This document shows, piece by piece, positions 1,469 to 59,287 of a DNA stretch of 64,000 bases (positions within the stretch are counted from its first letter, which is position 1; each line of letters begins with the position of its first letter). The notes beneath the pieces are model-generated. The model worked only from the letters and a program-made list of their open reading frames with translations, was not told the origin of the DNA and ran no database searches. The translations under genes and the position numbers were made by a program. Origin of the DNA: Vulcanimicrobiota bacterium (GTDB taxonomy: Bacteria; Vulcanimicrobiota; Xenobia; Xenobiales; JADMJV01). Location of the stretch: the NCBI GenBank assembly GCA_050250895.1, contig JBFWNU010000010.1, forward strand, positions 32,001-96,000, read 5' to 3'.

Positions 1469-3174
1469 TGGGGCGAAGGAGGAAGGGTCTGAGCCTTGGC
1501 CTGGTGCTGGTCGTCACTGCCCTGGTGGTGTCCGCCGGCTTTAGCCTGGCCAGTCTCAGCGTCACCCACCTCAACCTCACTCAGCGGGCCAGTAATTCGG
1601 AACGGGCCGAGAATCTGGCTCGTTCGGCCGTGCACCTGGGAGTGGCGCGCATTCTCGAAGATGCCGAACACGACTACGGGGTGGCCGGGACCGACGACCA
1701 GACGATCGAGGTCAGGTTGCCCGGCACTCGGCCGGGAGCCGTGGGACGCCTGACTTTTAGTCGGCTCCGGTCCGACGACCTGGGCATCCCTTGCTCGACC
1801 AACAATTTGCAGGGAAATACCTCGGTCTCTGGCGACGGGATGGTGGTGCCCACCGCGGCCGTCCACCTGGTGGGGGTGGGCGAGTGTGCTGGGGTGGTGC
1901 GCCAGGTGGATGCCATCGTGAACCTGCCTGCCTTCCCCTACGCGCTGGCTTCGGCCGGACCGGTCCGCACCCACGGGGCGGTGGTGGTCAGCGGCCTCGA
2001 GGGCGAACTAGCGGAAGGCCCTCTGGTCACGCCCCCCCAGTTGTTGCCCGCCGATCTCCATTCCAACGCCCTGGGCACGGCCATCTCGCTGGCGTCCGGG
2101 AGTCAACTGGGCGGAGATGTCGAGGCCGTTGGCACCGTTTCGCGCCAGCCCGACGTGAACGTGCTGGGCTCGGTGCGCGACCACGCCGACCAGCTCGACC
2201 TGCCCAGCTTCGACTTCAGTCACTACGACCCCCAGGCCGCCGGCCGGGTCTTCACTAGCCTCGAGCCTTCCTACGCCGAAAATCTGACCCTCACCGGCTC
2301 TTCCCGGCGCGAGGGTGACCTGACCATCGATCAGGGAGGCCTCGACCTCGAGGGGGCCATCCTCTATGTCGATGGCGACCTGACCATCGCCGGCGGTCTG
2401 CGCGGCAAAGGCATCGTCTGCGCCACCGGCGCGGTCACCCTCGACGGTACCGCCCAGGTCGATCCCTCAAGCTCGTTGGCGTTACTGGCCGGGGGTGACA
2501 TCAACCTCTCCGGCAGCGGTCCCCACGGCTCGTACCTGCAGGGGCTGGTTTATACCGAGGGCCGCTTCGTGGCTGACAGCGTGACCCTGGTAGGCACTCT
2601 GGTGGCCGGCGGCGACGGCTCGGCAGATGTCGATCTGACCAACACCCGCATCTTCTCCCTGCCCGACCTGGATGTGGAGTTCGGGCTCGGTGGTGGCGGG
2701 GCTTCTTCGGGGGGCGGCTCGGGGCCGGTCACCTTTCAAATTCCCTTTACCCTGGGGCCGAGTAACTCGGGTTCGAGTCGAGCGAACTTGCAAGGCACCG
2801 TATCCCTGACCGGACCGGGGGTCTATCTCTTCAACTTTCGACTGCAGGCTTTTCAGACTGCACCCGTGGTTGTCACTCAGACCGTGACGGTCGGGTCCCA
2901 AGCGCCGTATGGGGCGATCCGCGAACAATTGCTGCCAACCGTTCAGGGTCTCTACCAGACCGCCAGCGGCCAGGCAGTCACTCGCGCCACGGATCTCAAC
3001 GAAGTGCTCGGCGAGATCTGCGAGTATGCGCTCCAGGCCAGCGGCGACGGGCCTTCTGGTCCCGGCCCCGGGACCGGTGGCGACGACCCCACCGTCGAAA
3101 TCATCCGGCTCGATCCGTCGAAGTTCCTCAAGTTCGAAGACCGGGTCCGCTTCGCGCTTTGGCGCGAATCCTAG
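1468..3174 (+). CDS. PilX/GspK-like large pilin-type protein, paralogue B
   Basis: N-terminus MGRRRKG-LSLGLVLVVTALVV resembles a class III signal lacking E5, followed by the PilX-type A..LA.SA helix. Start GTG overlaps the upstream TAG. Confidence 0.75.
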   Translation: MGRRRKGLSLGLVLVVTALVVSAGFSLASLSVTHLNLTQRASNSERAENLARSAVHLGVARILEDAEHDYGVAGTDDQTIEVRLPGTRPGAVGRLTFSRLRSDDLGIPCSTNNLQGNTSVSGDGMVVPTAAVHLVGVGECAGVVRQVDAIVNLPAFPYALASAGPVRTHGAVVVSGLEGELAEGPLVTPPQLLPADLHSNALGTAISLASGSQLGGDVEAVGTVSRQPDVNVLGSVRDHADQLDLPSFDFSHYDPQAAGRVFTSLEPSYAENLTLTGSSRREGDLTIDQGGLDLEGAILYVDGDLTIAGGLRGKGIVCATGAVTLDGTAQVDPSSSLALLAGGDINLSGSGPHGSYLQGLVYTEGRFVADSVTLVGTLVAGGDGSADVDLTNTRIFSLPDLDVEFGLGGGGASSGGGSGPVTFQIPFTLGPSNSGSSRANLQGTVSLTGPGVYLFNFRLQAFQTAPVVVTQTVTVGSQAPYGAIREQLLPTVQGLYQTASGQAVTRATDLNEVLGEICEYALQASGDGPSGPGPGTGGDDPTVEIIRLDPSKFLKFEDRVRFALWRES

Positions 3175-4256
3175 AACTGATTGACCTCGACCGAAGAGTC
3201 GCCGATCATCAGCCACTCGTCATCGAGTTCTAGTTGCAAAGGCGGGCCCGAGCTCTCGCCCAACACGTCCTCAAGGCCCTGGCGGGTGGCCAGGATCTTG
3301 AGCGAGTAATCCATCATGGCCACGGCCAATCGCTGTCCGTCAGGGGAAAAGGCCAGGTCGCGCACACCCGTAATCTCACGGCGCACATCGCCTTTGGGCA
3401 ACTGAAAGCTCTTCTGCTGGCCCGTGGTGAAGTTCCAGCGGGTGACGGTGTTGTCGATGGGCGCGGCCACGAACAACTCGTCGCTGCCCGGAGCGAAGGC
3501 CATGTGGTTGGCCTTAAAGGCCTGATGGGCCACCGTCTTCCCGGTGGCCGCCTCGAACACCACCACCTCGCGATCCAGCACCGCCGCCGCCAGACCTCGG
3601 TCCGAAGTCTCTAAGGAACCGAAGCCCCTCTCGGCAGCCAGATGGTATTTCTGCTGGCCGTCGGCCCCGAAGGCACGCACGCCATCGCCGGACTGGGTGA
3701 GCAGAGTGTCGCCAACCAGGGCGGCGGAGCCGACTAGACCGCCCAGTTCCTGGCTTTGCTCGAGGGTCACGCCGCGAGATTCCTCGAACTTCCAGACCCG
3801 GGCATGGCCGTCGCCGCCGGCCGTCACCAGACGACCTCCATCTTCCGAGAAGCGAATGTCGAGCACCGAGTACCATGCCCCGGGATAGCTGATGCTGCCG
3901 TCGGGGTGGACCGTCTCGGGTCGCTGTTCTTGAGTGTGACGAAAGCAGAAGAGAGCGTCGCCGCTGACCGCGTCCCAGATGGTGACGGCCGCTTCGTCGT
4001 CGGCCCCGGCAATCCACTTGCCGTCGGGCGAGACGGCCACTGGCCCCATCCTCACCCGTTCTTTGTGGAGGTCAAGGTCAAGAGCCGGTGCATCCCCCAG
4101 AGGGTCCCATTTCTTGACGCCGCCATCCCACTCGGAGGAGACCAGCCCCTGGCCATCGGTGCTCCAGGCCACCGTGTCGATGGGGCTGGTGTGGGGATAG
4201 TGTCTGAGTTGCCGGCCAACAGCCGGGTCGGGCAGTTGCAGGGGGTTGATTCTCAT
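3171..4256 (-). CDS. WD40/beta-propeller repeat protein
   Basis: Repeated motifs VAWSTDG, AVSPDGK..AVTIWD, FSEDGGRLVTAGGDGHARVW and LAFSPDGQRL. Confidence 0.85.
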   Translation of the reverse strand: MRINPLQLPDPAVGRQLRHYPHTSPIDTVAWSTDGQGLVSSEWDGGVKKWDPLGDAPALDLDLHKERVRMGPVAVSPDGKWIAGADDEAAVTIWDAVSGDALFCFRHTQEQRPETVHPDGSISYPGAWYSVLDIRFSEDGGRLVTAGGDGHARVWKFEESRGVTLEQSQELGGLVGSAALVGDTLLTQSGDGVRAFGADGQQKYHLAAERGFGSLETSDRGLAAAVLDREVVVFEAATGKTVAHQAFKANHMAFAPGSDELFVAAPIDNTVTRWNFTTGQQKSFQLPKGDVRREITGVRDLAFSPDGQRLAVAMMDYSLKILATRQGLEDVLGESSGPPLQLELDDEWLMIGDSSVEVNQF

Positions 4257-4300
4257 GCCAAGAGCTTGGCACGAGTCCCTTAATCGACTCTAAAAGGGGG

Positions 4301-13565: not shown

Positions 13566-15731
13566 TTAGCGCCAGATGGCGTTGCGCTTGTCCTCGGGGC
13601 GGCGCATCGGGTCGCCGGGTTGCACGCCGAAGGCGTCGAAGAACTCGGGCATGTTCGAGACGGTGCCGTTGACCCGCAGCTTGGGGTGGGGGTGGGGGTC
13701 GGTCTTGACCATCAGCTTGGCATATTCGGGGCGCACGTTCGTGGCCCAGCTCTGGGCGAAGCTCAGGAAGAAGCGCTGGTCGGGAGTGAAGCCGTCGACC
13801 ATCTCGGGCGGCTTGCCCTCGGTGGCTTTCTTGTAGGCCGCATAGGCGATCTCGAGGCCGCCCAGGTCGGCCAGGGCCTCGCCCAGGACCAACTGGCCGT
13901 CGACCGGTAGCCCTTCGACCACGTACTCGCTGAACTGGCGCTCGATGCCGCCGGCTTTGGCCTGAAAGCGGGCCAGGTCTTCGTCGCTGAACCAGTTGCG
14001 CAAGTTGCCGTCGGCGTCGAACTGGGCGCCCGAGTCGTCAAAGCCGTGGCTAAGCTCGTGGCCGATGGTGGCCCCGATGGCTCCGTAGTTCATCGCCTCG
14101 TCGAAGTCGAGGTCGAAATAGGGCGTCTGCAGGATGCCCGCCGGGAAGACGATCTCGTTGTTGGGCGGGTCGTAGTAAGCGTTGTTGGTGGAAGCTGACA
14201 TATACCACTTGTCGTGGTTGACAGGCTTGCCGATCTGGGCCAGGTCGAGGGCCTTGTGGAAGCGATCGCCGTTGCGCACGTTGGTCAGGAAGCTGTCGCG
14301 GTTGACGGCGTAGTTGGAGTAGTCCTGGGGATTTTCGGGATAGCCGATCTTGGCCCGCAGTTTGTCGACCTTGGCCAGGGCCTCTTGTTTGGTCTCGGGA
14401 CCCATCCATTCCAGGCTGCGGATCTTGTCGCGCAAGGTGTCGCCGAAAATACGCACCATGTCTTCCATCTTGGCTTTGGCCTCGGGCGAGAAGCGGCGCT
14501 CGACGAATTTCACGCCCAGGGCCTCGCCCAGGTATTCGTCGGTCTTGTCGGCAATCTGTTTGGCCCGCGGAGGTTGCTGCTCGAGGCCGCGCATGGTCTT
14601 GCCGAAGAAGTTGAAGTTTTCGTCGGCGAACTCTTTCGAGAGATAGGGGGCGGCCGCGCTCAACGTGTGCCAGCGCAGATAAGCTTTGTGCTCTTCGATC
14701 GGAGTCTCGGCCAGGATGTCGTCGAGGCGCTCGAAATATTTGGGCACCGCCACGTTCACCCAATCGGGTGCCTGGACCTTGAGATCGTGGAAATAGGCGG
14801 GAAAGCTCAGGCACGGGACAAGTTTGTCGAGTTCGGTCTGGGTGGTGGGGTGATAGAGGGTGGCCGGGTCGCGCATCTCGGCGTTGGACAGCGAGGCTTT
14901 GGCGATGGTCGTCTCGAGGCGCAAGACGGCGGCGGCCTGGCGGTCGGCCACGGCGGGCGAGTCGCCGGCCAGTTCGAACATGCGGGTGACGTGCTGACGG
15001 AAGGCTTTGACCGTCTCTTTGCTCGACTCGTCGTCTTTGACATAGTAGTCGCGATTGGGCAGGCTCAGGCCGCCCTGGCTGAATTCGCCGATCATCCGGC
15101 TCGAGTCTTTGGCGTCCTGGGCGGCGTAGAAGCTGAAATAGACCGAGTTGCCCTCGGCGTGCATGGCGGTAGCCGCCTGCTGGATATCGGCCACGTTCTT
15201 GATGGCGGCGATGCGGGCGAAATCGCTCTCGAGAGCCGAGAGGCCGGCCGCCTGGATGGCCGCCTCGTTCATTCCGGCGGCATAGAAGTCGCCCAATTTC
15301 TGCTCGTTGCTGCCCGGGGTCTGGGGGCTTGAAGAGAGTTCTTCGAGGATTGCCTTGACCACTTTCTCGTTACCCACCGTCACCTCGGCGTCGATGCCGA
15401 AACGCGAGCGGTCGGGCGGGATGGGGTGGCTGGCCAGATAGCCGCCCATGGCGAACTGATAAAAGTCGCGGGTCGGGCTGGTGGTGGGGTCGAGATTATC
15501 GCGCGAGAACGGGGGGCGTGTCTCTTCGACCTGGAGCTCTTCGAGCGGGGCGGCGGGCGCGACCAGAGCCGGGGCTGGCGCCGGAGGCGGTGTCACGGAC
15601 AGCAGCGGGCCCGAGAAGGTGAACTGGTCCTCGGGCTGGCGGTGGACCGGGTGACCGTGGCCGAGGGGGCCGTGGTGGCGGCAGGCCGGTCGCGAGAGCA
15701 AGGGACTGGTGGTCAAAGCGCTGATATTCAT
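13566..15731 (-). CDS. M13-family zinc metallopeptidase (neprilysin/PepO-like)
   Basis: NAYYDPPNNEIVFPAGILQ, IGHELSHGFD (HExxH), GEALADLGG and DPHP..RVNG motifs. Confidence 0.95.
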   Translation of the reverse strand: MNISALTTSPLLSRPACRHHGPLGHGHPVHRQPEDQFTFSGPLLSVTPPPAPAPALVAPAAPLEELQVEETRPPFSRDNLDPTTSPTRDFYQFAMGGYLASHPIPPDRSRFGIDAEVTVGNEKVVKAILEELSSSPQTPGSNEQKLGDFYAAGMNEAAIQAAGLSALESDFARIAAIKNVADIQQAATAMHAEGNSVYFSFYAAQDAKDSSRMIGEFSQGGLSLPNRDYYVKDDESSKETVKAFRQHVTRMFELAGDSPAVADRQAAAVLRLETTIAKASLSNAEMRDPATLYHPTTQTELDKLVPCLSFPAYFHDLKVQAPDWVNVAVPKYFERLDDILAETPIEEHKAYLRWHTLSAAAPYLSKEFADENFNFFGKTMRGLEQQPPRAKQIADKTDEYLGEALGVKFVERRFSPEAKAKMEDMVRIFGDTLRDKIRSLEWMGPETKQEALAKVDKLRAKIGYPENPQDYSNYAVNRDSFLTNVRNGDRFHKALDLAQIGKPVNHDKWYMSASTNNAYYDPPNNEIVFPAGILQTPYFDLDFDEAMNYGAIGATIGHELSHGFDDSGAQFDADGNLRNWFSDEDLARFQAKAGGIERQFSEYVVEGLPVDGQLVLGEALADLGGLEIAYAAYKKATEGKPPEMVDGFTPDQRFFLSFAQSWATNVRPEYAKLMVKTDPHPHPKLRVNGTVSNMPEFFDAFGVQPGDPMRRPEDKRNAIWR

Positions 15732-17880: not shown

Positions 17881-18053
17881 AGCCCCGAGTCTAACAGCCT
17901 TTCAGGAAACCCGATGTAACCTTGCCCACGAAGTGGGATACTTCACAGTTCAACCTGTGCCGGTCGCCAGGGTAGCGCTCGTGTTCCATCCACTTCCTGG
18001 GGGAAGAGGGTCCGGCTGACGCAGCCGACCCGGCCCGGGAAGGCGTCTCCTCG

Positions 18054-19322
18054 ATGCTCTTTGCGCGGCGGTTGCCGGGGCGGCGACTGCTGGGGCTGGA
18101 TTGGGCGCCAGGGTCCCAACTCCCGGACTGCGAATTTGGTCTTGTGGGCAGCTTGTTTGGCAAACGAAAGGCGCGCTTCGGCCGGGCGGCCACGGAGCGC
18201 TTCCGCCAGGCGTTCCCTCAGAGCGAACCGCGGCTTGACGAGAAGGCTTTTGTCATCGACTTCTTTCACGAGGGCAACGCCGGCACGCTCCAACTCGACT
18301 CGTTCTATGGCCAGCTCGACCAGCATTCGCAGACCCAGGTGCTCGACCGTCTGGTGGCCGCACTAAGCGATTCCTTTGGCGGCCTGCCCGCCTTGTTTGA
18401 TGAAGCTCGCAAGTCGCTGTTGCCCCGCCTCACCTCGCGCGTTTTTCTGGAAGAGCTGCGGTTGAATCAACGACCGGCGCCCTTCCGGCTGGTGGGCGAT
18501 CGGCTGGTCGCCCTACTCGCTCTGGACCGGCCGACTTCGGTGGCCTACATCGATCAACAGCAACTGGAGAAATGGCACGTCCAGGTGGAGGAGACCTTCG
18601 AACTAGCTCTGCGCAATCTGGGCACCCGCAGCCCCCGGCCGCTATTTGAACGGTTGGCCGACGGTCTGTTCCAGTCGCCACGCCAAGATAGCTGGGACGC
18701 CAGCACCCTGCTGCTCTATCATCAGCAGCCCGAGCCGCCGAAGCTCGAGGGCGAGCCGGTAGTGTTGGTGGCCAATGCCGATGTCTTGTTGCTCACGGGT
18801 AGCCAGAATCGGGCTGGGCTCGAGTATCTGCTCGACGAAGGTGAAGCCTGTCTCGAGGCGCCCCGCCCCATCTGCGCCACTCCTTTGAGCGGACCTGACT
18901 GGAAGCCGTTACGATTGAGCCCCGAACACCCTCTGTATGCTCGCTGGCGCAGGCTGTTTTGTCAGAGCCAGGCCCTGGCTTATGCCGAGCAACGGGCCGT
19001 GCTCGAGCGCGCCTTCGACCAACGAGGCGAGGATGTCTGGGTGGGCAACTACGGCCTGATTTCGGCTCCTGAGCGACCCGAGACAACCCTGAGCTGGACC
19101 GTCTGGCCTCAGGATGTGGTCGGCCTGATGCCTCACACCGACCTGCTGGGGGTGGTGGCAGACGACCAGCAGTCTCCCGAACTGTATGACTTCGAATCGG
19201 TCCTAAAAGCAGTCGGCGACCGCCTCGAACTGGTGCCCGAGTGCTGGCCGCCGCGCTATCGCTTTACGGGCTTTCCCACCGAGGAAGAACGCAAGCGGTT
19301 CGTGGGTCGCGAGCCGGATTAG
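18054..19322 (+). CDS. DUF1444/YtpQ-like protein
   Basis: LALDRPTSVAYI..QQLEKWHV..EETFELALRNL and DSWDASTLL motifs; true start probably near 18145. Confidence 0.6.
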   Translation: MLFARRLPGRRLLGLDWAPGSQLPDCEFGLVGSLFGKRKARFGRAATERFRQAFPQSEPRLDEKAFVIDFFHEGNAGTLQLDSFYGQLDQHSQTQVLDRLVAALSDSFGGLPALFDEARKSLLPRLTSRVFLEELRLNQRPAPFRLVGDRLVALLALDRPTSVAYIDQQQLEKWHVQVEETFELALRNLGTRSPRPLFERLADGLFQSPRQDSWDASTLLLYHQQPEPPKLEGEPVVLVANADVLLLTGSQNRAGLEYLLDEGEACLEAPRPICATPLSGPDWKPLRLSPEHPLYARWRRLFCQSQALAYAEQRAVLERAFDQRGEDVWVGNYGLISAPERPETTLSWTVWPQDVVGLMPHTDLLGVVADDQQSPELYDFESVLKAVGDRLELVPECWPPRYRFTGFPTEEERKRFVGREPD

Positions 19323-21084: not shown

Positions 21085-21089
21085 TGCGC

Positions 21090-21095
21090 TATAAT
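21090..21095 (+). promoter_or_regulatory. -10 box (TATAAT) 6 nt before ATG 21102, leaderless-type promoter
   Basis: Sequence TATAAT-ggtggg-ATG. Confidence 0.6.
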
Positions 21096-21101
21096 GGTGG
21101 G

Positions 21102-40900: not shown

Positions 40901-43168
40901 CTAAGCGCCAGGGTTGCCGGTGATTACGACATTGTCGATATAGACGCCGTCGCGGTGGCGCGAGTCGTCGGATAGAAACCGGAATCTCAGCTTGATCTCC
41001 TGGCCGTCATAGTCCGACAGGTCGATCTTCTGGTGAGCCCAATCTTTTTCGCCGTCGAGGGTGGCCACGGCGCGCCAGGCGGTCCGCCACCACTTCTTGC
41101 CATAGACCTCGACCTTGCACTTGTCATAGCCGTCTTCGGTATCGACCTTCGAGTCGAAGTGCAACTCGGCGCCTTTCCAGTGAGTCAGATCGACCGGCTT
41201 GGAAGTGAGCGACTGATCGCGTCCCGGGCCGTAGTCGCCGCCGGGACTGTCAGTATAGACCTGGCCACGTCCGGGTGAATCGACCCTGGCCCACTCGCCC
41301 TGGGCACCCCACTGGCCGGTATCGGCGTCCATCGAGTCTTCGAAGGCCACGGGGCGACCCGGAACCGAGGTCGAGGTTGTGGCCGCCACCGAACGGTTGC
41401 CCACATTGTCGAGGCTCTGCAAAGCGAAATGCAGCTCGCGATCGGCGCCCGAGGGCGGAAAAGAGATGGCCACACTCTCGCTGTGACCGGATGGCCCGGG
41501 CCGCCCGATGCCCACCGGGGTGGCCTGGGAAAACGGGATCTGCCCCTGGCCCTCGCCGATGGGGCCAGGAGCGTAGCGCAGGTCGTAAGAGGTCGACTGA
41601 CCTTCGGTGCCGTCATCGCCGGTGGCTTTCCAGGCGAGGGTGACCTTCTCGCCATCGGTCTGCTCGACCCGAAACGACAGGGGCGAATCGGGGGCGATCT
41701 GGTCGTCTTCGAGGGCTCCGAAGGCGTTCAGGCGGCCCCCGCTGGCCAGTTGATCGCCGTAACGGGGGATCGGGTCGACCCCGGTCAGAATGCGATTCTT
41801 GATGGCCTGATTGTCGACGCCCGGATAGCGCGCCGCGATCAGGGCGGCCACGCCGGCCACATGGGGGGCGGCCATGGCCGTTCCCTCTTTGCTGCCGAAC
41901 TGGCCGCCTGGCAGGGTCGAGTAGATGTCGGTGCCGGGGGCGCACAGGTCGACGCTCTCGGCCCCGCGGTTGGTGAAGCCGGGCAAACGGTCGTTGCGGT
42001 CCGAGGCGGCCACCGCCAAAACGTTGTCAAGGTTGAAGCTGGCCGGATAGACCGACTTGCGGTCGTTGTCGTAGCCGTCATCGCCGGCGGCACACACGTG
42101 GAGTGCGCTCGACGAGCGCATCACGTCGGCCAGGGCCTGGTTGTACTTGTAACCGCCCCACGAATTGTTGGTGATGCGAGCCCCGTTCTGCTCAGCGTAG
42201 AGAAGGGCTTTCATGGCGTCGACGGTGGTGCCGCCGCGACCCGAGCCGAGGAACTTCAGGCCCATGATGCGGCCCTCCCAGTTGACTCCCGTCACACCCT
42301 GGCGGTTGTTGCCCTCGGCCGCGATGATGCCAGCGGCGTGGGTGCCGTAGCCGTTGTCGTCGTTGGGATCCCCGCTGTTGGAGACGAAGTTGGCGCCGTG
42401 CAGATCGTCGTCGTAGCCATTGCCGTCGTCGTCCCACTGGTTGTCGGCCACTTCGCGCGGGTTGGTCCACAGGTTGTTGACCAGGTCGGGGTGGTGCCAG
42501 TCGATGCCGGTATCGAGCACGGCCACGATGGGGCCGTCTTCGCGCCGTCCGGTCGACAGCGACCAGGCGCGGGTGGCGTCGATATCAGCGCCGCTACGGC
42601 CGCCATCCTGGCCGTCGTTTTTCATGTTCCACTGCGATTCGAGCAGGTCGTCGGGTTCGAGCCCTTCGTTGGGGGCCGGGGCCGGACGTACCGGCGGCAA
42701 GGCTTCACCGGCTTGGTCGCCGGCCGGGTCGTGGCTAAAAGAATGGACGATGTCGTTGGACTCGGCGTAGGCCACGCGGGGATCGCGACCGAGCACGGCC
42801 AGGCCTTCGGCGGTCGACAGGCGCGGGCCCAACTCGAGCACGGCCAGCTTGCCACCCAGACGCTCGGCCATGGCGCCCGGCGCGTCAAAGCAATGCATCA
42901 CCTTGGATTGATAGTCCTCGGCCAGTTGGCCCAGCGACTCGGCGCTCAGGCCGCCTTCGAGCTTGACGATGACCTGGCCGGGCACGAACTCGCCGGGGAT
43001 CAGTTTCTCCGCCAGCGAAGCTGCCTCTTTGCGGGCGCCGTCGACGGCCGCGTCTAAATCAAAGGGAGCCGACCGGCTCAGCCCATCCGTAGGGCTGACC
43101 TCGGGTTGCCTGGCCGCCGCCACGGGCGCGGCGACGGGCATTCTCTGCACAAAACTCTGGATGACCAC
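40901..43168 (-). CDS. S8 subtilase homologue with substituted catalytic residues, FN3-like and C-terminal beta-sandwich domains
   Basis: VLDTGID is present, but the sequence has YGTHAAG, CAAGD and EGTAMAAPH in place of HGTHVAG, AAGN and SGTSMA. Confidence 0.85.
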   Translation of the reverse strand: MVIQSFVQRMPVAAPVAAARQPEVSPTDGLSRSAPFDLDAAVDGARKEAASLAEKLIPGEFVPGQVIVKLEGGLSAESLGQLAEDYQSKVMHCFDAPGAMAERLGGKLAVLELGPRLSTAEGLAVLGRDPRVAYAESNDIVHSFSHDPAGDQAGEALPPVRPAPAPNEGLEPDDLLESQWNMKNDGQDGGRSGADIDATRAWSLSTGRREDGPIVAVLDTGIDWHHPDLVNNLWTNPREVADNQWDDDGNGYDDDLHGANFVSNSGDPNDDNGYGTHAAGIIAAEGNNRQGVTGVNWEGRIMGLKFLGSGRGGTTVDAMKALLYAEQNGARITNNSWGGYKYNQALADVMRSSSALHVCAAGDDGYDNDRKSVYPASFNLDNVLAVAASDRNDRLPGFTNRGAESVDLCAPGTDIYSTLPGGQFGSKEGTAMAAPHVAGVAALIAARYPGVDNQAIKNRILTGVDPIPRYGDQLASGGRLNAFGALEDDQIAPDSPLSFRVEQTDGEKVTLAWKATGDDGTEGQSTSYDLRYAPGPIGEGQGQIPFSQATPVGIGRPGPSGHSESVAISFPPSGADRELHFALQSLDNVGNRSVAATTSTSVPGRPVAFEDSMDADTGQWGAQGEWARVDSPGRGQVYTDSPGGDYGPGRDQSLTSKPVDLTHWKGAELHFDSKVDTEDGYDKCKVEVYGKKWWRTAWRAVATLDGEKDWAHQKIDLSDYDGQEIKLRFRFLSDDSRHRDGVYIDNVVITGNPGA

Positions 43169-51090: not shown

Positions 51091-51588
51091 TTAAAGGCTC
51101 CCGCGGTCCTCGAAGCGCACGAAGTGGCCGGCGACGATGTCGAACTCGGCATACATCACTCGTGAGGCATAAGGGTCACCACGCGGTCCCACCAGGCCGA
51201 TGGTCGTGATGCGGTAAAGTCCATAGCGGACCGGGTTGTCGTCGCCTTGCACGAAGACCTCGCGCTCGAGCTGGTAGTCGACAAAGACGGTGTAGCCGAG
51301 CTGATCGGCCGGAGGAGTGGCGTTGGGGTCGCGCAGATCCTCGGCGTAGCTAAAGATGAACTGGTTCTTGTCCTTATTGCGCTTGGGGGGAAAGCGCACA
51401 TCCTTGGCCAGTTTGACCCGGGCGTCTTCCATTCCGGCCAGCGCCAGGGCTTTGGCCTGGCTGGCCTGCACTACTCGCTGCGAAGATCGGTATTTGGCCG
51501 CCTGGCTGCCGAGCAAGCCGAGCCCCGCCACCAGCACCACGGCCAGGATCAGCAGGCACATGACCAGCATGAAGCCTTTCTTCTTCAA
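51091..51588 (-). CDS. PilX-like minor pilin
   Basis: (M)KKKG-FMLVMCLLIL lacking E5; AKALALAGMEDA helix; TTG start overlaps the upstream TGA. Confidence 0.78.
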   Translation of the reverse strand: MKKKGFMLVMCLLILAVVLVAGLGLLGSQAAKYRSSQRVVQASQAKALALAGMEDARVKLAKDVRFPPKRNKDKNQFIFSYAEDLRDPNATPPADQLGYTVFVDYQLEREVFVQGDDNPVRYGLYRITTIGLVGPRGDPYASRVMYAEFDIVAGHFVRFEDRGSL

Positions 51589-52163
51589 GGGTACACTCCC
51601 ATGCAGGTGACCGTCGAGGTCACGCTGAGGACCGGGCCGTTGGGCGGCGCCACCCCGATGGAAAGGTCGATGATGCCGGGTTGCTCGGCGGCGGCCGGCT
51701 GGCTCGAGGTCAGGCCTACGATGCCCTCTACGACCAGATGTTGCGACCCTCCGTTGATGGAGCGGAAAAGGTTGTTGCCGTTGGACCAGTAGCGAATCTG
51801 CAGTCGCGAGCCGGCCGGATAGGGGTAGCCTCCGGGGATGGTCGGTGTCCACAATGGCGGAGGGTCGGCGGGCGGAACCGGCAGGAGGGCCTCGTCGAAC
51901 GGCTGGGTGGGGTCGATCTTGGTGAAGGTGATGCCGGTTCCCAGGGCGTCGATACTGATGGCCTCGCGTAGCTCACAGCTTACCCGGTCGAGCGCCTGCT
52001 GGGCCGCGATATAAGAGCGCTCGCGCATTTCGCTGTAGCGTAGAACCCGGTTGGCCCCCCCCAGGAGGTTAGCCATAATCCCCAGCACCAATCCCACCAG
52101 AAAGACCGTGATGATGACTTCGGCTAGGGAAAAGCCTAGAACAGAGTGAGGACGGGTGACCAT
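51585..52163 (-). CDS. PilW-like minor pilin
   Basis: LG-FSLAEVIITVFLVGLVLG prepilin motif. Confidence 0.82.
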   Translation of the reverse strand: MVTRPHSVLGFSLAEVIITVFLVGLVLGIMANLLGGANRVLRYSEMRERSYIAAQQALDRVSCELREAISIDALGTGITFTKIDPTQPFDEALLPVPPADPPPLWTPTIPGGYPYPAGSRLQIRYWSNGNNLFRSINGGSQHLVVEGIVGLTSSQPAAAEQPGIIDLSIGVAPPNGPVLSVTSTVTCMGVYP

Positions 52164-53002
52164 TTCACCACCTCCTCTCCACCGATGCGGGCGCGTACAC
52201 CGACCCTGACTTTGCCGGGGGCGGTGGTCACCGAGGCCGGGTTGGTCGGGTCGTACTGGACCTCATTCTTGAAAGTGGCGGTGTTCGAGGCGGCGGGGTC
52301 GTAGTCGAGGGTCCCGTTGGCCGTTCCGTCGGCTTCGATGTACCAGGTGAAACTGGCGTCCTCGACTGGCTGACCGGTGGTGTCGCTCAGGGTCACCTGG
52401 AAGTCGCGGGTCGAGCCCGGAGCCAGATCGGTAAGGGCCGGCAGCATGACGAGGTTCATGGAGGAAGGATCGGGTAGGATCCGGCGGACGGGGTCGCCCA
52501 CCAGGCTCACCAGCGCCATGCGCTGGGTCACGGACGGACCCCAGGTGACCGTGACTTCGATTCGGCGGGTCGAGCCGTCAAAGCTCTTGATAGGGTCGGC
52601 GGCGGTCGGAGGGTCGACCAGGGTCTCGTCGTCCTGAGCCGAGAAGCGGACCGACTCGAACTGCGACGACGGTGCGAAAAGCTGGTGGCGGGTGGCCGCC
52701 ACCGTGACGCTGTAGTTGGGATAGTCGGCGTCGGTGGTGGTGACACCATCGTACGTGGCCCAGGAGGCGTCGTCGGCGAATCGAGCGGTGCCGCCGGTGC
52801 CGTGGGTGCGGCGCGACCATGAGCGGATCTCTTCGAGCTTGCGCTCGGCCACCAGGACGGCGATGTGCTTTTCTTCGACCACGCGGGAGTGGCGCAGGGC
52901 GGTATGATATAGCGCTGCGATGACGATGAAGCCCGCCGTCAGCAAGAAAATCGCGATGATCGTCTCGAGTAGCGCCAGGGCTCGGTGGGGGCGCACGATC
53001 AT
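52136..53002 (-). CDS. PilV-like minor pilin with C-terminal Ig-like segment
   Basis: HRA-LALLETIIAIFLL; AERKLEEIR helix. Confidence 0.78.
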   Translation of the reverse strand: MIVRPHRALALLETIIAIFLLTAGFIVIAALYHTALRHSRVVEEKHIAVLVAERKLEEIRSWSRRTHGTGGTARFADDASWATYDGVTTTDADYPNYSVTVAATRHQLFAPSSQFESVRFSAQDDETLVDPPTAADPIKSFDGSTRRIEVTVTWGPSVTQRMALVSLVGDPVRRILPDPSSMNLVMLPALTDLAPGSTRDFQVTLSDTTGQPVEDASFTWYIEADGTANGTLDYDPAASNTATFKNEVQYDPTNPASVTTAPGKVRVGVRARIGGEEVVKWSPVLTLF

Positions 53003-55077
53003 GGTAGCGGCGTTCTCTGACGAATCCAGTTCGGGTTTCGATTGTTACCGGTGGTGGTGAGTTGAATCATGCCGGTGCGCGGGTTCCAGTTGGTGGCGTC
53101 GCAGATGAAAAGCTGCCACGTGCCGGACTGGTCGGTGCAATACAGCACCTTGTCGCCGCGGGGCGAGACCGAGACCAGGGCGTCGTTAATACCAGTCGAG
53201 GTCGATTTGTCGGCGGGACCAGACACCTGGGGTCCCGTGGCCGGGTCAACGCCCGAGAGCGGCAATCGCGCCAGATACGGGTTGGTGATGTTGCCGACCA
53301 CGAAGTAGATGTAGTTGCCCTGCAAGGACATGGTCGCGGCTTTCACCTTTTCGTCTGGCGGGGTCGGAATGGGGTCGATGATTTCCAGGGGCATCTTGAC
53401 CGGCGTAATCGCGCTGGTGGCGGGGTTGAAGTCGATGCGGTAGCAGTAGATTTTGAGCGTGTTAAAGTCGTCGAAAAAGACGAACTTGCCGTTGTGGCTC
53501 CAGCCTACCCGACCCATATTACAGGGCGCGGCGTCGGCGACCTTGGTAGGGTTCGAGCCATCGGTGCTGCAGACGAAGACCTCGGCGCCTCGTCGATAGG
53601 CGATCATCTGGCCGGTGGGGTTGATCTGGGCCTCGTCCACGGCGCCGATGGGCAACAACGTCTCTTGACTGGTGTCGGTTTGCATGATGAACAAGGCGCC
53701 GCTGCGGATAAAGCAAACCTGGCGTCCGTCGGCCGAGGCCGAGGGGAAGACTTCGTCTTGCGGAGAATTGACCAACTCTTCTTCGTGGGTGCCGTCGGCC
53801 CACATGGAGAAGATATCCCAGTTGCCGTTGCGGTCGGACTGGAAGATGATCTCGCCGGGGGGGCTGACGATGACTCGGGGGGGCGGGCCGCTGATGGCGG
53901 CGTGTACGGTGGCGGCGGCGTCGGTCACATCGAGGGCCAGGGAATACTCGTCACCCGGGTTGGCCGTGGTCGGGGGCGTCCAGGTCCAAACCGAGCGCCA
54001 CAGGTCTTCTTCTCCGGCGTCGACCACGCCATCGCTGTCGCGGTCATACCAAGGGTAGAAAGTCATGCGCTCGCGGGCCACCGCTCCGGGGGCCGGCGGC
54101 GGAACCGAGAACCGGCCTTTGAAGGCCGCGCCGGGTTGAGTCAGGGGGTTGTCGTCCCAGCCCGTATAGAGTTGGATACCGTCGGGGGCTCGGGCGAAGA
54201 CCTCGAAGGTCAAATACTCGCCATAGCTGAGGGTGTAGACATCGGGGGGATTGTCAGGGTCGGGGTCAGGAGTGATTCGGGTGTCGACGATCTGGGGCAC
54301 CAGGGGCAGCGCGCCAGGCGCCAGCACCGGCGGATTGGTAAGCCCGCCGATGAAGCGCGACGAACCGATGGCCACGCCAGCGCCCGAATAACCCACCAGT
54401 CCGGGCGAGACCGTCACCGACCCGCTGGCGTCTAGAGTTACCGTGTAGCATTCGCCGGCGGCGCTCAGAGCGCGATAGGCCGGGGGAGTGCTCATGAAGC
54501 TGGTTCCGCCGCCGGGAGCGGCGGCTGGGTTCGAGACGGTGCCGGCCGCCACCAGGATGTGATAGGCCTGATCGAAGGCCGGCAGGTCATTAGAGACGAC
54601 CTGCCCGTTGGGAGTGAACACGAAATGATAGTCGCTGCTATAGGCTGCTGGCAGCCAGTCGTCGAGGTACTGGGCCCAGGCCGTCGCTTTCGAGCCGGGC
54701 AGGGAGGCATTCTTGATGGTGGCGCTGGTAGTGGGCCAGGTGCCCACGAAGATTTGGGTGCCCGGGTATTCGGTGTCGTAGCGAACCGACCGGGAGACAT
54801 GGGGGGCGGCCTCTCCGTCGAGGGAATAGAACGAGGCAGCGGCGGGGCTGGGAATCGAGACCGAGATGGCCCGCTGTTGGGCGATGGCTTGCTGGCGAAC
54901 CTGTCGCAGTTCGGCCGCCAGCACCGTGGCCAGGGCGCGGGCGTTGCCTCTTCCGAGAGTAGGTCGCATGGCCAACAAGCCCAGGCCGGCGATGACGGAT
55001 AACAGGGCGATACCAATGAGTATTTCTATGAGGGTAAACCCCGCGCCCCGTCGGTGAGTCTTGAGCATGCTTCCCAT
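52999..55077 (-). CDS. FimU/GspH-like pilin fused to a TolB/PD40-like beta-propeller
   Basis: AG-FTLIEILIGIALL; ELRQVRQQAI; FVFTPNG; IIFQSDRNGNWDIFSM, VSVSPRGDKV and QLTTTGNNRNPNW motifs; start 55077 or 55068. Confidence 0.82.
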   Translation of the reverse strand: MGSMLKTHRRGAGFTLIEILIGIALLSVIAGLGLLAMRPTLGRGNARALATVLAAELRQVRQQAIAQQRAISVSIPSPAAASFYSLDGEAAPHVSRSVRYDTEYPGTQIFVGTWPTTSATIKNASLPGSKATAWAQYLDDWLPAAYSSDYHFVFTPNGQVVSNDLPAFDQAYHILVAAGTVSNPAAAPGGGTSFMSTPPAYRALSAAGECYTVTLDASGSVTVSPGLVGYSGAGVAIGSSRFIGGLTNPPVLAPGALPLVPQIVDTRITPDPDPDNPPDVYTLSYGEYLTFEVFARAPDGIQLYTGWDDNPLTQPGAAFKGRFSVPPPAPGAVARERMTFYPWYDRDSDGVVDAGEEDLWRSVWTWTPPTTANPGDEYSLALDVTDAAATVHAAISGPPPRVIVSPPGEIIFQSDRNGNWDIFSMWADGTHEEELVNSPQDEVFPSASADGRQVCFIRSGALFIMQTDTSQETLLPIGAVDEAQINPTGQMIAYRRGAEVFVCSTDGSNPTKVADAAPCNMGRVGWSHNGKFVFFDDFNTLKIYCYRIDFNPATSAITPVKMPLEIIDPIPTPPDEKVKAATMSLQGNYIYFVVGNITNPYLARLPLSGVDPATGPQVSGPADKSTSTGINDALVSVSPRGDKVLYCTDQSGTWQLFICDATNWNPRTGMIQLTTTGNNRNPNWIRQRTPLP

Positions 55078-55084
55078 CCCGCTT

Positions 55085-56728: not shown

Positions 56729-56766
56729 AGGATTGACTCCGACGGCGACGGGGAAGAACTCCACTT

Positions 56767-57909: not shown

Positions 57910-58167
57910 TTAGTCGCGTCGCATGGCTTTGGCCAGGGCTGCTAGCGGCAGTCCGATCAGAAGCCCCAGGGCCAGGCTGCTGGCCGCCTGCTTGGAGGTG
58001 CGGACCAGTTCCGCTCCGGGGCGAGGTGCCGGCGCCTTTATTGGTGGCTCGGGGTCAACCGACCGGGTGTAGCCGTCTGCGGGCACGGGGGTGGGGTCGG
58101 CGCCGATAGCCGGGCGCAGGCCCTGGGCTCTGGCGGTGGGGGGAAAGAAGTTGGGTCTCACGAGCAT
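57910..58167 (-). CDS. Small protein with low-complexity leader and one C-terminal TM helix
   Basis: 85-aa ORF; TAGGCT-N6-ATG upstream. Confidence 0.6.
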   Translation of the reverse strand: MLVRPNFFPPTARAQGLRPAIGADPTPVPADGYTRSVDPEPPIKAPAPRPGAELVRTSKQAASSLALGLLIGLPLAALAKAMRRD

Positions 58168-58269
58168 AAGGTTAGCCTAGCTCAGGGACCTGAAAACTAT
58201 CTGAACATCGCTTTCCAGGAAATTTCAGAGCCTGCAGATAGACTGAAAAAAACGCATTCGGAGAATGAA

Positions 58270-58713
58270 ATGATCCACGCCACCAATGTTTCTTCGCTGT
58301 CCTACACTCGCGCCCTGAGCGCCTATCGTGCCGCCAGCCCCGAGGCTGACTCGACTCCCCAGCTTCCCCTCGACGGGGTGACCATCTCCGCTCAGGCCCA
58401 GGCCCGCCCCCATCGCAGCGGTCTGGCCGGCGTTTCGAAATTTGTAGCCCTGGCACTGTGCGCCGGCGCCATGCTGGGGGCCGCCGGGTGCGCCAGCACC
58501 GGCCCCATGGCCGGGCAGCACCAGCCCGCCAACCCCTATCGTCAAGCCGGGCGCGACCTTCACGAGGTCGGCCAGCAGGGCAAAGAGGTCGGCCAGGCCA
58601 TCGGGCGCAAAGGCGCCGAGGTCGGCCGCGAAGTGGGCGAGCAAGGCAAGAAGTTTGGCCTGGGCGTGCGCGATGCCGCCGTCGAGTTCTGGAAGGGCCT
58701 CAAGGGCGAGTAG
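58270..58713 (+). CDS. Small protein with N-terminal leader, internal lipoprotein-like signal and amphipathic repeats
   Basis: GGAG RBS; KFVALALCAGAMLGAAGC; repeated EVG.. units. Confidence 0.7.
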   Translation: MIHATNVSSLSYTRALSAYRAASPEADSTPQLPLDGVTISAQAQARPHRSGLAGVSKFVALALCAGAMLGAAGCASTGPMAGQHQPANPYRQAGRDLHEVGQQGKEVGQAIGRKGAEVGREVGEQGKKFGLGVRDAAVEFWKGLKGE

Positions 58714-59287
58714 TCACTCGCCGGCCATCATAGCTCAAGTTTTCCGTGGCCCCGGGAGGCGAGGTGGCGATCTGCTCGTCGGCCGGATAGAGCGCCACTC
58801 GCGTTACCGAGCGGTCGGTCCCCGGTCCACTCGTGCCCACCGCGAAAGAGACCGGGCCCTCGGCCGTTTCAAGGCGCACAATCGAGCCGGTATTACCTTG
58901 TGGCCGTGGCATGCCATCCATGAGCATTTGCCCATTCTTGACCTCCAGCCGGTGGGGGCGTCCGTCTGTTCCGCAATAGTTGATGCGGGCCGTGCCGTCG
59001 GGCGCCCACTCCACCTGGCCTCCTGGAAACTCACTAATTTGTCCGCGCTGCAACTCGCGGGGATAGTTCTTTGGCTGGCCGCCGTCGAGCCCGAAGTTGG
59101 CCGCCAGGGCCGCTCCTCGCTCGACGGCTACGAAGGCGACAAAGCGGTCTTCGAGGTCCAGGGCAGTGTGCACCCTCCGGCGTCCCTGGCAGCCTGACCC
59201 AACCGGAGACCGGGCCGACTGCGAGCAGGCTTGGCGTGACGGGGGATGGCCGAGGGGAATGGCGCAGAAGCGAAAGTTGATGAGCAT
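58700..59287 (-). CDS. Hypothetical protein
   Basis: Strong RBS GGAGGA before ATG 59287. Confidence 0.6.
   Translation of the reverse strand: MLINFRFCAIPLGHPPSRQACSQSARSPVGSGCQGRRRVHTALDLEDRFVAFVAVERGAALAANFGLDGGQPKNYPRELQRGQISEFPGGQVEWAPDGTARINYCGTDGRPHRLEVKNGQMLMDGMPRPQGNTGSIVRLETAEGPVSFAVGTSGPGTDRSVTRVALYPADEQIATSPPGATENLSYDGRRVTTRP

Follow-up and report, generated by a model that had tools for sequence, protein, structure and literature searches.

A two-part N-terminal leader, almost certainly a genuine, lineage-specific functional address tag, is carried by unrelated proteins encoded both within the 64,000-nucleotide stretch of DNA analysed here (the window) and far beyond it. Its first block consists of Met, a polar or basic residue and an Ile or Val at position 3 (M-[KQRN]-I/V). 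This is followed by a spacer of ∼25 residues, rich in Pro, Ala, Thr, Ser and Arg, nearly devoid of acidic or large hydrophobic residues and predicted to be disordered, and then by the second block, P-x-D-x-[F/V]-x-[L/I/P]-S, whose Asp lies at residues 21–35. A weight matrix for the two blocks, refined by iteration over the genome and used with a threshold score of 13.4, detects the leader in 271 of the 8237 called genes, or up to 405 when alternative starts are counted (3–5% of the genome), compared with ∼5 of 8237 shuffled N-termini and ∼3 of 4711 stretches starting at an internal Met. With separate halves for training and testing, there were 215 real matches (97 + 118) against two (0 + 2) among shuffled sequences. 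The shared two-part leader suggested by an earlier, sequence-only reading of the window is thus confirmed, and its proposed lineage specificity also held: among the genomes searched, leader-bearing ones belong only to the Xenobia-type branch of Eremiobacterota.

The two blocks occur together and at a fixed spacing. When the N-box was scored on residues 2–9 only and the second motif was scanned over residues 7–125, proteins with a strong N-box (n = 218) had a motif Asp at residues 21–35 in 39 cases per 100, compared with 0–2.3 in the other bins, and proteins with a negative N-box gave 0.1–0.5 per 100 in each bin. The loose core [PA]-x-D-x-hydrophobic, originally put forward as the N-terminal mark, does not by itself hold up (1.02-fold, no N-terminal enrichment). 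The tighter motif D-x-V-x-[ILFV]-S is 2.2-fold enriched at residues 6–80 (101 matches), with the full leader layout present in ∼40 of the 101. Residues 2–12 lack Asp and Glu in 90% of carriers versus 36% of other proteins, and position 3 or 4 is aliphatic or Pro in 93% versus 63%, figures which are partly circular because the leader model selects for these traits. Leu, Val and Ile are depleted in the leaders, Arg is weakly preferred at positions 14–16, and the twin-Arg consensus is absent. A hydrophobic stretch lies inside the leader in just three of the 271 carriers, as expected if the leader is not a Sec signal.

The ten open reading frames singled out by the sequence-only reading are all present in the window at the positions it gave, and independent gene calls picked the same starts for the named examples. 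Five of the seven said to carry the full leader pass the genome-wide model. On the minus strand these are the M13 peptidase (gene 13566–15731; leader, aa 1–42, at 15606–15731; MNIS..., Asp35 motif DQFTFS; score 32.8), a 150-aa Gly/Ala-rich membrane protein with no Pfam family match (19319–19771; leader, aa 1–37, at 19661–19771; MQIT..., Asp30 motif DKVEID; score 33.8), an S8 subtilase homologue (40901–43168; leader, aa 1–35, at 43064–43168; VVIQ..., Asp28 motif DGLSRS; score 26.4) and an 85-aa protein with a hydrophobic segment at its C-terminus (57910–58167; leader, aa 1–38, at 58054–58167; MLVR..., Asp31 motif DGYTRS; score 21.8). The fifth, on the plus strand, is a 147-aa protein (58270–58713; leader, aa 1–42, at 58270–58395; MIHA..., Asp35 motif DGVTIS; score 18.0) in which the leader is followed by a lipoprotein-type signal (…LALCAGAMLGAAGC). 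The leader of the 150-aa protein was also recovered by profile A1 at G000:C10:51667-51771. In an AlphaFold2 model of the M13 peptidase (25 homologues), residues 1–71 have pLDDT <50 and no secondary structure, and the remainder is above 90.

The S8 homologue has a GTG start, and its leader precedes a fervidolysin-type prodomain, an S8 domain and a MAM-like domain (Pfam). It was rightly called dead: the catalytic Ser is replaced by Ala (GTAMAAPHVAG), with Asp, His and Asn kept; it has 15 leader-bearing paralogues. The two remaining examples fail the model, namely the PAD-like enzyme (25235–26731; score 5.8, N-box negative) and the gene at 58700–59287, which, like the gene at 26948–28681, scores below 5. 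Consistent with its description as having only the first part, the WD40 protein (3171–4256, minus strand; Pfam WD40; MRINPLQLP...) shows the first block alone and scores 11.1, below the 13.4 threshold. The S8 paralogue at 31128–32465 (plus strand) was correctly set apart as a contrast case, since it begins with an ordinary hydrophobic signal peptide.

The called starts of the carriers are supported, because they show an excess of ATG (81% versus 63% of all calls) and of Shine-Dalgarno-like sites (48% versus 33%) as well as a characteristic promoter spacing. A −10-like box at −12 to −7 precedes about a fifth of carriers but only 4.1% of other genes, and in 22 carriers, including the window gene 57910–58167, the −10 box lies exactly 6 nt ahead of the start codon. 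A promoter of the form TTTCAG-N9-12-TANNNT is found ahead of 125 genes, of which 45 are carriers where 6.1 would be expected, and its pairing with the leader recurs in the genome of another family (L055). Two such promoter-like sites lie in the window. TTTCAG-N10-TAGGCT (58174–58195, minus strand) ends 6 nt before the ATG of 57910–58167, a leaderless-type arrangement; TTTCAG-N10-TAGACT (58223–58244, plus strand) lies 25 nt before the ATG of 58270–58713. The carrier promoter is absent from the flagellin, FlgM and FlgK genes, and the sigma-28-type GCCGAT was not enriched in the carrier promoter analysis.

It had been predicted that homologues would have a Sec signal in place of the leader, and this is what we see for both M13 and S8. 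Among the best 120 homologues of the window M13 peptidase, the leader model accepts 13 and a further eight look leader-like by eye; in 96, the conserved start of the mature domain is immediately preceded by a hydrophobic signal. The M13 homologues with Sec or lipoprotein signals are the more distant ones, and the same is true for S8. In an alignment of the 21 leader-type M13 orthologues, the first ∼110 columns conserve just M-x-[IV] and [DE]-x-[FVY]; in leader-type orthologues at 45–64% identity both blocks are kept and the spacer is not. Eight of the 21 S8 homologue loci of genome G054 pass the leader model, genomes G007, G016 and G035 each have S8 homologues with Sec or lipoprotein signals, and in other families of the phylum the S8 homologues carry Sec or lipoprotein signals. 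The exchange is also seen among paralogues in this genome, with two leaders and one signal peptide for M13, and one leader, one lipoprotein signal and one protein with neither for FKBP. The leader resembles Sec, lipoprotein and Tat signal peptides in its position in the protein and in being interchangeable with them among homologues, but differs in lacking their hydrophobic core and twin-Arg consensus. Because it occupies the signal-peptide place of the M13 and S8 homologues, it most likely acts as a Sec-independent export or targeting signal.

By blastp of their mature parts, the carriers form 199 clusters, 173 of them singletons, and so represent about 200 unrelated families. This agrees with the earlier description of a leader on unrelated hydrolases and small membrane proteins. 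Pfam matches were found for 31 of 80 sampled carriers, many of them cofactor enzymes of usually cytoplasmic families; the cytoplasmic families include aconitase, P450, FAD oxidases, flavin reductase, RNase II and AMP-binding proteins. Cofactor enzymes would be hard to pass through a channel that requires its cargo to be unfolded. Where a cytoplasmic-type enzyme bears the leader, it is in most cases an extra copy (leaderless paralogues: CheB-like, seven; RNase II, one; cytidine deaminase, two; flavin reductase, two; P450, three), although for five cytoplasmic-family carriers a leaderless copy was not found in this genome. A hydrophobic segment occurs within 45 residues after the motif in 98 of the 271 carriers, with a lipobox-like Cys in 21 of those; 51 have a segment only much later and 122 have none anywhere. 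Neither the cytoplasmic-family carriers nor the post-leader membrane segments had been foreseen by the earlier reading. Small acidic chaperone-like genes are not in excess beside carriers (11.0% versus 11.3%), and no neighbouring gene family is enriched there (best uncorrected p 7.5e-3).

The layout of the leader invites comparison with flagellar and type III secretion signals. According to Bryant et al. (2022, PMC8983047), the early flagellar substrates FlgD, FlgE and FlgG of Salmonella need small non-polar residues at positions 2–5 and a second motif at least 19–30 residues downstream, with the spacing being critical. The leader, with Ile/Val at position 3 and Asp at 21–35, is likewise extreme N-terminal, unstructured and in two parts. 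However, the gate-recognition motif described there for the FlgD type is F/Y-x-x-x-hydrophobic rather than P-x-D-x-[F/V]-x-[L/I/P]-S (PMC8983047), and hundreds of non-flagellar proteins carry the leader, whereas the cell's own rod and hook proteins do not. FlgM provides a second parallel. In model bacteria it starts with M-x-I and has a D-x-V-x-L-S-type motif. The FlgM of this genome, the one FlgM-family gene above cut-off, has a leader-like layout in its N-terminal half (PF04316, TIGR03824): M-T-V, ∼35 disordered Ser-rich residues and S-S-V-E-V-S where the FlgM domain begins. FlgM is described as a substrate of the flagellar export gate and has been employed as a tag for secretion (PMC3372961, PMC3595227). 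The proposed flagellar/type III resemblance thus holds for the two-part layout but not at the level of family models, since none of 12 leaders matches TIGR03824 even at E ≤ 10 (true FlgM, 8e-15). Furthermore, the carriers have no sigma-28-binding helices, and what follows their leaders is a range of unrelated domains.

The injectisome effectors of Pseudomonas syringae share a promoter, the Hrp-box. The carriers are likewise a large, dispersed, co-regulated repertoire with a common promoter, albeit of another sequence. Schechter et al. (2012, PMC3338616) describe an aliphatic residue or Pro at position 3 or 4 and an absence of acidic residues from the first 12 positions for these type III substrates, traits found in 93% and 90% of carriers, respectively, together with Ser enrichment in 40%; unlike those patterns, the leader has a true consensus as well as a second motif that is locked in position. 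Flagellar machines are described as exporting non-flagellar proteins by means of N-terminal sequences in Campylobacter jejuni (PMC5223770, PMC2764114) and Lysobacter enzymogenes (PMC7688988). The set considered here would comprise 270–400 candidate substrates with a consensus. To our knowledge, the sets in those two bacteria are small, and no consensus tag has been reported for them. As the sequence-only reading had advised, we looked for flagellar export genes: the genome has two sets, and eight further genes encode only the FlhA C-terminal domain (Pfam scans of six of these showed fusions to FlhB_C, to an HTH domain and to FliG_N, one of each). The rod, hook, junction, filament and cap proteins of both sets are negative by the leader model, and no injectisome needle family was found in the genome in a search with a weak control. 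In the phylum sample, 80 of 81 genomes have FlhA, among them 22 of the 23 in a family without any leader match; presence of the flagellar gate therefore does not track that of the leader.

The leader may instead serve a non-flagellar machine. Xenobia-type Eremiobacterota would then have a Sec-independent pathway not yet described, which might involve either the numerous type II/type IV-filament-like gene sets or the regulon's long YidD-domain proteins. The replacement of signal peptides in M13 and S8 would fit such a machine equally well, as would the lack of co-variation with the flagellar gate and the flagellar proteins that have neither leader nor carrier promoter; pseudopilin, GspF-like and ATPase genes are interleaved with the carriers in the window, and two of the four long YidD-domain genes have the regulon promoter. 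We nevertheless consider this rather unlikely, given that no candidate machine gene is enriched beside carriers and nothing positive links another system to the leader. We also know of no type II system whose substrates arrive other than by Sec or Tat, which counts against type II as the machine. Somewhat less credence still is given to a cytoplasmic docking or control tail that docks co-regulated proteins onto one shared partner (a scaffold, the membrane, a protease adaptor or a soluble FlhA_C/FlhB_C protein), the leader of membrane proteins remaining on the cytoplasmic side. Such a tail would suit the many carriers of cytoplasmic enzyme families, some without a second copy, the 98 with a membrane segment right after the leader, the common promoter class, as one programme would predict, and the soluble fusions of docking domains. 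It leaves unexplained why the leader takes the exact position of the Sec signal in M13 and S8 homologues, and it would strand, without another export signal, hydrolases that are extracytoplasmic in other bacteria: the carriers include subtilases with a prodomain, clostripain-type and PG-binding wall hydrolases, LysM proteins and BamB-like propellers.

The 98 carriers with a nearby hydrophobic segment, and the 21 with a lipobox-like Cys (e.g. 58270–58713), could also suggest an N-terminal extension of Sec or lipoprotein signals, resembling the extended region of autotransporters and tuning Sec export. This is very improbable, as the 122 carriers without a segment and the 51 with only a late one speak against it, and the M13 and S8 carriers have no hydrophobic segment before the mature domain. 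That the pattern is an artefact, of low-complexity Pro/Ala-rich sequence, over-extended starts or nucleotide selection at the 5′ ends of leaderless mRNAs, is scarcely credible. The spacer is indeed of low complexity, the gene caller used here was crude, and the −10-like box so close to the start in about a fifth of carriers means that 5′-end constraints could favour M-[KQN]-I codons. However, the shuffled and internal-Met controls almost never pass, the second motif is position-locked to the N-terminus, orthologues keep both blocks but not the spacer, and the starts are independently backed.

On balance, we lean slightly towards a two-part tag with Sec-independent routing, in which a flagellar-type gate is the most likely reader. 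The leader would then send co-regulated accessory proteins (hydrolases, extra enzyme copies and small Gly-rich membrane proteins) elsewhere than the Sec periplasmic route does. The N-terminal Ile/Val would provide the gate-opening hydrophobic signal of the flagellar-type gate, and the second motif, ∼25–30 residues behind it, would be a docking motif. The assignment to a flagellar-type type III export gate, argued by analogy, is itself tentative and rather less than probable: as the canonical flagellar proteins are leaderless and neither a chaperone nor a linked machine gene turned up, we only infer the machine. The interpretation first offered is thus partly supported: the lineage-specific non-Sec leader, the replacement of signal peptides and the type III-like layout stand, export itself and delivery to other cells are hypothetical, and the flagellar connection is weakened by those leaderless flagellar proteins. 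A literature search found no paper on the leader. Its presence on several hundred unrelated proteins, in the position of a signal peptide, points to an undescribed export address.

The genome to which the window belongs (9.5 Mb, 63% G+C, 17 contigs) was annotated with our own dicodon log-odds gene caller, which placed 8237 genes covering 90% of the sequence. For the proteins named in the sequence-only reading of the window, this independent caller picked the same starts. The loose core proposed in that reading, [PA]-x-D-x-hydrophobic, shows no enrichment at N-termini when taken alone (1.02-fold). The motif D-x-V-x-[ILFV]-S is 2.2-fold enriched there, and about 40 of its 101 N-terminal matches have one layout: M-x-I, then roughly 25–30 residues rich in Pro, Ala, Ser, Thr and Arg, then the motif. 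An iterated profile HMM of this whole leader was abandoned because the variable spacer held it at 28–29 matches, and we therefore used a two-block weight matrix, scoring residues 2–19 and a freely placed 12-residue motif box with its Asp at residues 19–64. The matrix converged on 271 leader-bearing genes (carriers); at the same threshold, shuffling left ∼5 passing N-termini among 8237, and stretches that begin with an internal Met gave 3 among 4711. Training on one half of the proteins and testing on the other gave, at a score of 14, 97 and 118 real matches against 0 and 2 shuffled ones. Up to 134 more genes are gained when other start codons in frame are permitted, their leader having been clipped by the caller.

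The leader begins at Met1 in every case and is about 40 residues long. Its consensus is M-[K/Q/R/N/I]-I/V-x-[P/S/N]-[F/…], with Ile contributing 4.0 bits and Val 1.6 bits at position 3, followed by a Pro/Thr/Ala/Arg-rich spacer, also rich in Ser, and P-x-D-[Q/K/S/T/R]-[F/V]-[S/E/T/Q]-[P/L/I]-S. The spacing was also measured outside the limits of the search, by scoring the N-box on residues 2–9 only and scanning for the motif over residues 7–125. The N-box was passed by 218 of 6909 proteins, against 14 when shuffled. Per 100 of these 218 proteins, the motif Asp fell 6.0 times at residues 21–25, 20.2 times at 26–30 and 12.8 times at 31–35, with 0–2.3 in each remaining bin, while proteins with a negative N-box gave 0.1–0.5 motifs per 100 across all bins. 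Since the peak at 21–35 is confined to proteins with a strong N-box, the two blocks of the leader are coupled at a fixed distance.

The proposal that several unrelated window proteins share such a leader held for the M13 peptidase (13566-15731, −), the S8 homologue (40901-43168, −) and the genes at 19319-19771 (−), 57910-58167 (−) and 58270-58713 (+). It failed for the PAD-like enzyme (25235-26731; score 5.8, N-box negative) and for the gene at 58700-59287, which scored below 5, as did that at 26948-28681. The WD40 protein (3171-4256, −) has the first block alone, scoring 11.1 against the threshold of 13.4. Downstream of its leader, 58270-58713 encodes a complete lipoprotein-type signal (…SKFVALALCAGAMLGAAGC), which an in-frame Val codon immediately precedes, and it is conceivable that this gene has two alternative starts with different addresses.

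Comparison with homologues indicates that in M13 and S8, the two families followed, the leader stands in for a signal peptide. Among the best 120 of 7245 M13 matches, 13 pass the leader model, and 8 more have what looks by eye like a leader. In 96 the N-terminus is hydrophobic and ends just before the conserved G-F-D-x-x-N-L-D at which the mature domain starts; the remaining 3 are of other types. The 21 leader-type sequences are 45–64% identical, and their first ∼110 columns conserve only M-x-[I/V] and [D/E]-x-[F/V/Y]. The AlphaFold2 model of the window M13 peptidase gives residues 1–71 a pLDDT of 24–34 and no secondary structure, with the rest above 90. For S8, 8 of 21 loci in G054, a genome of the same order, pass the leader model; G007, G016 and G035, from other families of the phylum, each have S8 homologues with plain Sec or lipoprotein signals, and two of these three also have leader-like variants below the threshold. 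Different addresses likewise occur among paralogues of one family inside the genome itself. The window S8 homologue keeps its Asp, His and Asn, with the catalytic Ser replaced by Ala (GTAMAAPHVAG). It is one of 15 S8 paralogues that combine the leader with a MAM-like C-terminal domain.

The called starts of the carriers are supported by their start codons and upstream sites. Carriers begin with ATG in 81% of cases (63% of all calls), have a Shine-Dalgarno-like site in 48% (33% of all calls) and have a −10-like TANNNT at −12 to −7 in 20.7% (4.1% of other genes). The element TTTCAG-N9-12-TANNNT, often in the form TTTCAGG-N9-CTAGACT, lies within 150 nt 5' of 125 genes. Carriers account for 45 of these, against an expectation of 6.1 (p = 8e-28). 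For 44 genes, 22 carriers and 22 others, the 3' end of the element lies exactly 6 nt ahead of the start codon, a spacing that has the geometry of leaderless transcripts and implies leaderless mRNAs. Window sites lie at 58174-58195 (−), 6 nt before the ATG of 57910-58167; at 58223-58244 (+), 25 nt before the start of 58270-58713; and at 17900-17922 (+). Many of the non-carriers with this promoter likewise start M-x-I/V, and the first block plus promoter therefore mark a somewhat larger set. In G054, which represents another family, TTTCAG-N10-TATCCT-N7-ATG precedes a leader gene beginning M-R-I-L-P. A housekeeping-type TTGACA-N16-18-TANNNT precedes 79 genes, none of them carriers. We rejected a sigma-28-type promoter for the carriers: neither GCCGAT nor CCGATA is enriched upstream of them, and flagellin, FlgM and FlgK are absent from the 125 promoter-bearing genes. 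As a separate observation, the genome encodes, besides one ordinary short YidD, four long proteins (open frames of 291–608 aa) with an N-terminal YidD domain, at C1:1908120-1908305 (+), C1:328411-328581 (−), C12:106211-106378 (+) and C4:731089-731262 (+), and two YidD-like genes of matching size have the carrier-type promoter 8 nt before the start.

The leader is a property of a lineage. Close homologues of the FlhB and M13 proteins of this genome are labelled Candidatus Eremiobacterota, Candidatus Xenobium sp. and UBP9, and Candidatus Xenobium is placed in class Candidatus Xenobia, phylum Vulcanimicrobiota. A profile built from 39 leaders of the genome, which will miss diverged forms, recovers 55 sites in the genome itself and matches 19 of 81 genomes in the phylum sample. 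These include 6 of 8 in the window's own family, all three in the sister family (6–12 sites each) and all three in one genus of a third family. Further sampled genomes give scattered single weak matches, and the profile finds none in the 23 genomes of the largest family of the other branch.

The mature parts of the 271 carriers are diverse, forming 199 blastp clusters of which 173 are singletons; S8 subtilases, with 15 members, make up the largest, ahead of PG-binding proteins (8), acyltransferases (7) and lipid desaturases (6). Of 80 carriers compared with Pfam at 1e-5, 26 representing clusters and 54 drawn at random from the singletons, 31 matched a family and 49 did not. Extracytoplasmic types comprise MAM-like, PG_binding_1+Hydrolase_2, clostripain C11, M36, M13, alpha-amylase, GDSL lipase, LysM, BamB-like propellers, PD40 and VWA. 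Usually cytoplasmic families are present as well: RNase II, AMP-binding, P450, PI3/PI4-kinase-like, M20, FKBP, cytidine deaminase, amine oxidase, glycerol-3-phosphate oxidase type, PHB depolymerase, CheB methylesterase, the aconitase family, PTP-like phytase, animal haem peroxidase, flavin reductase, acyltransferase, lipid desaturase and M48. The latter are mostly divergent extra copies, with leaderless paralogues also in the genome; no second copy was found there for the aconitase-family, AMP-binding, M20, amine oxidase and PHB depolymerase carriers. Carriers are dispersed, yet form 40 adjacent pairs where 20 ± 4.7 are expected by chance.

Most known classes of N-terminal signal can be set aside. 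That the leader is non-Sec was borne out: a hydrophobic stretch, such as Sec and lipoprotein signals have in their first ∼30 residues, lies within it in only 3 of 271 carriers. A Tat signal was rejected too, as there is neither a twin-arginine consensus nor a hydrophobic region; Arg reaches just 1.0–1.4 bits at positions 14–16, and the stretch that follows is Pro/Ala-rich and depleted in Leu, Val and Ile (the genome has one TatC gene). Lacking both a hydrophobic core and a twin-Arg consensus, the leader is therefore not recognized by Sec or Tat in any way known. An extended signal peptide region always precedes a canonical signal peptide; here a hydrophobic segment follows within 45 residues in 98 of the 271 carriers (with a lipobox-like Cys in 21), only later in 51 and not at all in 122. 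The double-glycine leaders of peptidase-ABC exporters do not fit, there being no Gly-Gly column and post-motif positions favouring Gln, Ser, Gly or Asn and then Pro, and encapsulin and microcompartment tags were rejected because of the breadth of the cargo. Type III systems are, to our knowledge, the sole readers of uncleaved, disordered, polar N-termini. The closest known counterparts are the two-part signal of early flagellar substrates, the N-terminal half of FlgM, and sets of effectors that have an N-terminal pattern and a promoter in common. FlgM of this genome is built on the same plan as the leader, and it is the one gene over the cut-off in a whole-genome scan for the FlgM family (PF04316/TIGR03824); none of 12 leaders matches that family at E ≤ 10, where true FlgM scores 8e-15. 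According to PMC3338616, Pseudomonas syringae effectors have an aliphatic residue or Pro at position 3 or 4 and no acidic residue in the first 12, and these N-terminal rules, together with a Ser content of 10% or more over the first 50 residues, are descriptive and not sufficient. For carriers and other proteins respectively, the position 3/4 rule holds in 93% and 63% and the absence of acidic residues in 90% and 36%, figures that are partly built into the model; the Ser rule holds in 40% and 17%.

Could a flagellar-type gate read the leader? According to PMC8983047, early flagellar substrates of Salmonella need small non-polar residues at positions 2–5, and a docking motif must follow these at a distance of at least 19–30 residues. 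The leader shares this layout: an extreme N-terminus predicted to be disordered (residues 1–71 of the window M13 peptidase), a non-polar Ile or Val at position 3, and a second motif downstream, with Asp at 21–35 in 39 of every 100 proteins whose N-box is strong. The motif and the carriers differ, the leader having P-x-D-x-[F/V]-x-[L/I/P]-S in place of the FlgD-type gate-recognition motif that docks on the C-terminal domain of FlhB (FlhB_C). The search for export genes, which the sequence-only reading had called for, found two flagellar-type sets, at C1:1458-1476 kb (FlgB to FlhA) and C1:584-594 kb (FlhA, FlhB, FliR, FliQ fusion, FlgC, FliF, FliG, FliH), with a third block near the latter at C1:545-566 kb (FliM, FliN, FliW, FlgL, FlgK, FlgM, FlgF, FlgG, FlgA, FlgH, FlgI). 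Eight more genes encode only the cytoplasmic C-terminal domain of FlhA (FlhA_C), at C1:2013805-2014935 (−), C1:2473655-2476609 (+), C1:1126937-1128199 (−), C6:529281-530642 (−), C7:121829-122929 (−), C7:117220-118743 (−), C1:2008491-2009819 (+) and C8:31611-33212 (+). Pfam scans of six of them showed three fusions, one each to an XRE-type HTH, FliG_N and an FlhB_C-like domain; in these proteins the two domains by which export substrates are recognized, FlhA_C and FlhB_C, occur in soluble form. A carrier or leader-like gene lies within a few genes of 3 of the 8 paralogues, which by a rough estimate is not above chance.

The genome's own FlgB, FlgC, FlgF, FlgG, FlgK, FlgL, FliE, FliK, flagellin and FliD homologues are negative in the leader model, and a wall hydrolase in the FlgJ position adjoining flgI was dismissed as a carrier, reaching just 10.7 with an internal start. 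Small acidic neighbours, a chaperone signature, are no more frequent beside carriers (11.0% versus 11.3%), and no family is significantly enriched among 1320 flanking genes. The injectisome needle family PF09392 gave no match, in a search whose control set also contained no positive. FlhA occurs in 80 of the 81 sampled genomes and does not co-vary with the leader, so that a phyletic link between the two is uninformative; one family with ∼12 FHIPEP matches per genome has the leader in none of five. Cofactor enzymes would be odd cargo for an unfolding channel, unless refolded in a target cell. Against a flagellar-type gate, then, the axial proteins lack the leader, the leaders do not match FlgM, FlhA does not co-vary, flagellar genes lack the carrier promoter, no chaperone or linked gene stands out and the cargo includes cofactor enzymes. 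We consider it probable, and no more, that the leader is an export or targeting signal replacing Sec, and reading by a flagellar-type gate, argued by analogy, a possibility that we would sooner bet against.

Some further features may be recorded alongside. Two full-length FlhA/FlhB/FliR/FliQ/FliF/FliG/FliH sets are present in the genome, and many of the 81 sampled genomes have two full-length FlhA matches; FHIPEP matches number 5–15 in large genomes of the phylum and 1–3 in small ones. One gene of the flagellar late-gene block (C1:554283-555470, −), adjacent to fliW, joins a CsrA domain to a histidine-kinase core (HisKA + HATPase_c). The window is also dense in type II/type IV-filament-like genes interleaved with carriers, as judged by eye from N-termini (1-3174, 20026-25196, 29950-30936, 33361-37062 and 51091-55068), among them genes with prepilin-type N-termini, two GspF-like genes and a 1233-aa ATPase-like gene.

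Consensus protein-sorting signals are few (Sec, Tat, the lipobox, prepilin and C-terminal sorting tags), and each opened a pathway. Here a new consensus tag marks 3–5% of a 9.5-Mb genome, substitutes for Sec signals in well-known secreted families and has its own promoter class. If it is of type III type, it would be the first such signal with a true sequence consensus, and proteins would leave the cell in large numbers through the flagellar gate or a derivative in an uncultured phylum; otherwise there is a new export route to be discovered. The model allows the candidate secretome or effector set of the lineage to be read directly from metagenomes, and it also corrects annotation, since the carriers would be labelled cytoplasmic by standard signal-peptide tools. 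We found no description of such a leader in the literature on Eremiobacterota/Xenobia flagella and secretion, including the portions available to us of PMC9259500 and PMC11484240, whose supplements may list secretion systems. A predatory habit has been proposed for large-genome marine Eremiobacterota (PMC9259500). The most far-reaching reading, which we regard as speculative and rather unlikely, is that Xenobia-type Eremiobacterota have an undescribed delivery programme, in which an N-terminal address and a promoter class on 300–400 accessory proteins would direct their export, without Sec, into or onto other cells. The cargo would be proteases, wall hydrolases, lipases, eukaryote-like kinases and phosphatases, oxidases, peroxidases, deaminases and small Gly-rich membrane-inserting proteins; the machine would be a flagellum-derived gate aided by the soluble FlhA_C/FlhB_C paralogues, or wholly new; and the dedicated promoter class would often yield leaderless mRNAs. 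If true, this uncultured phylum, free-living and possibly predatory, would have an effector repertoire as large as those of Legionella or Chlamydia.
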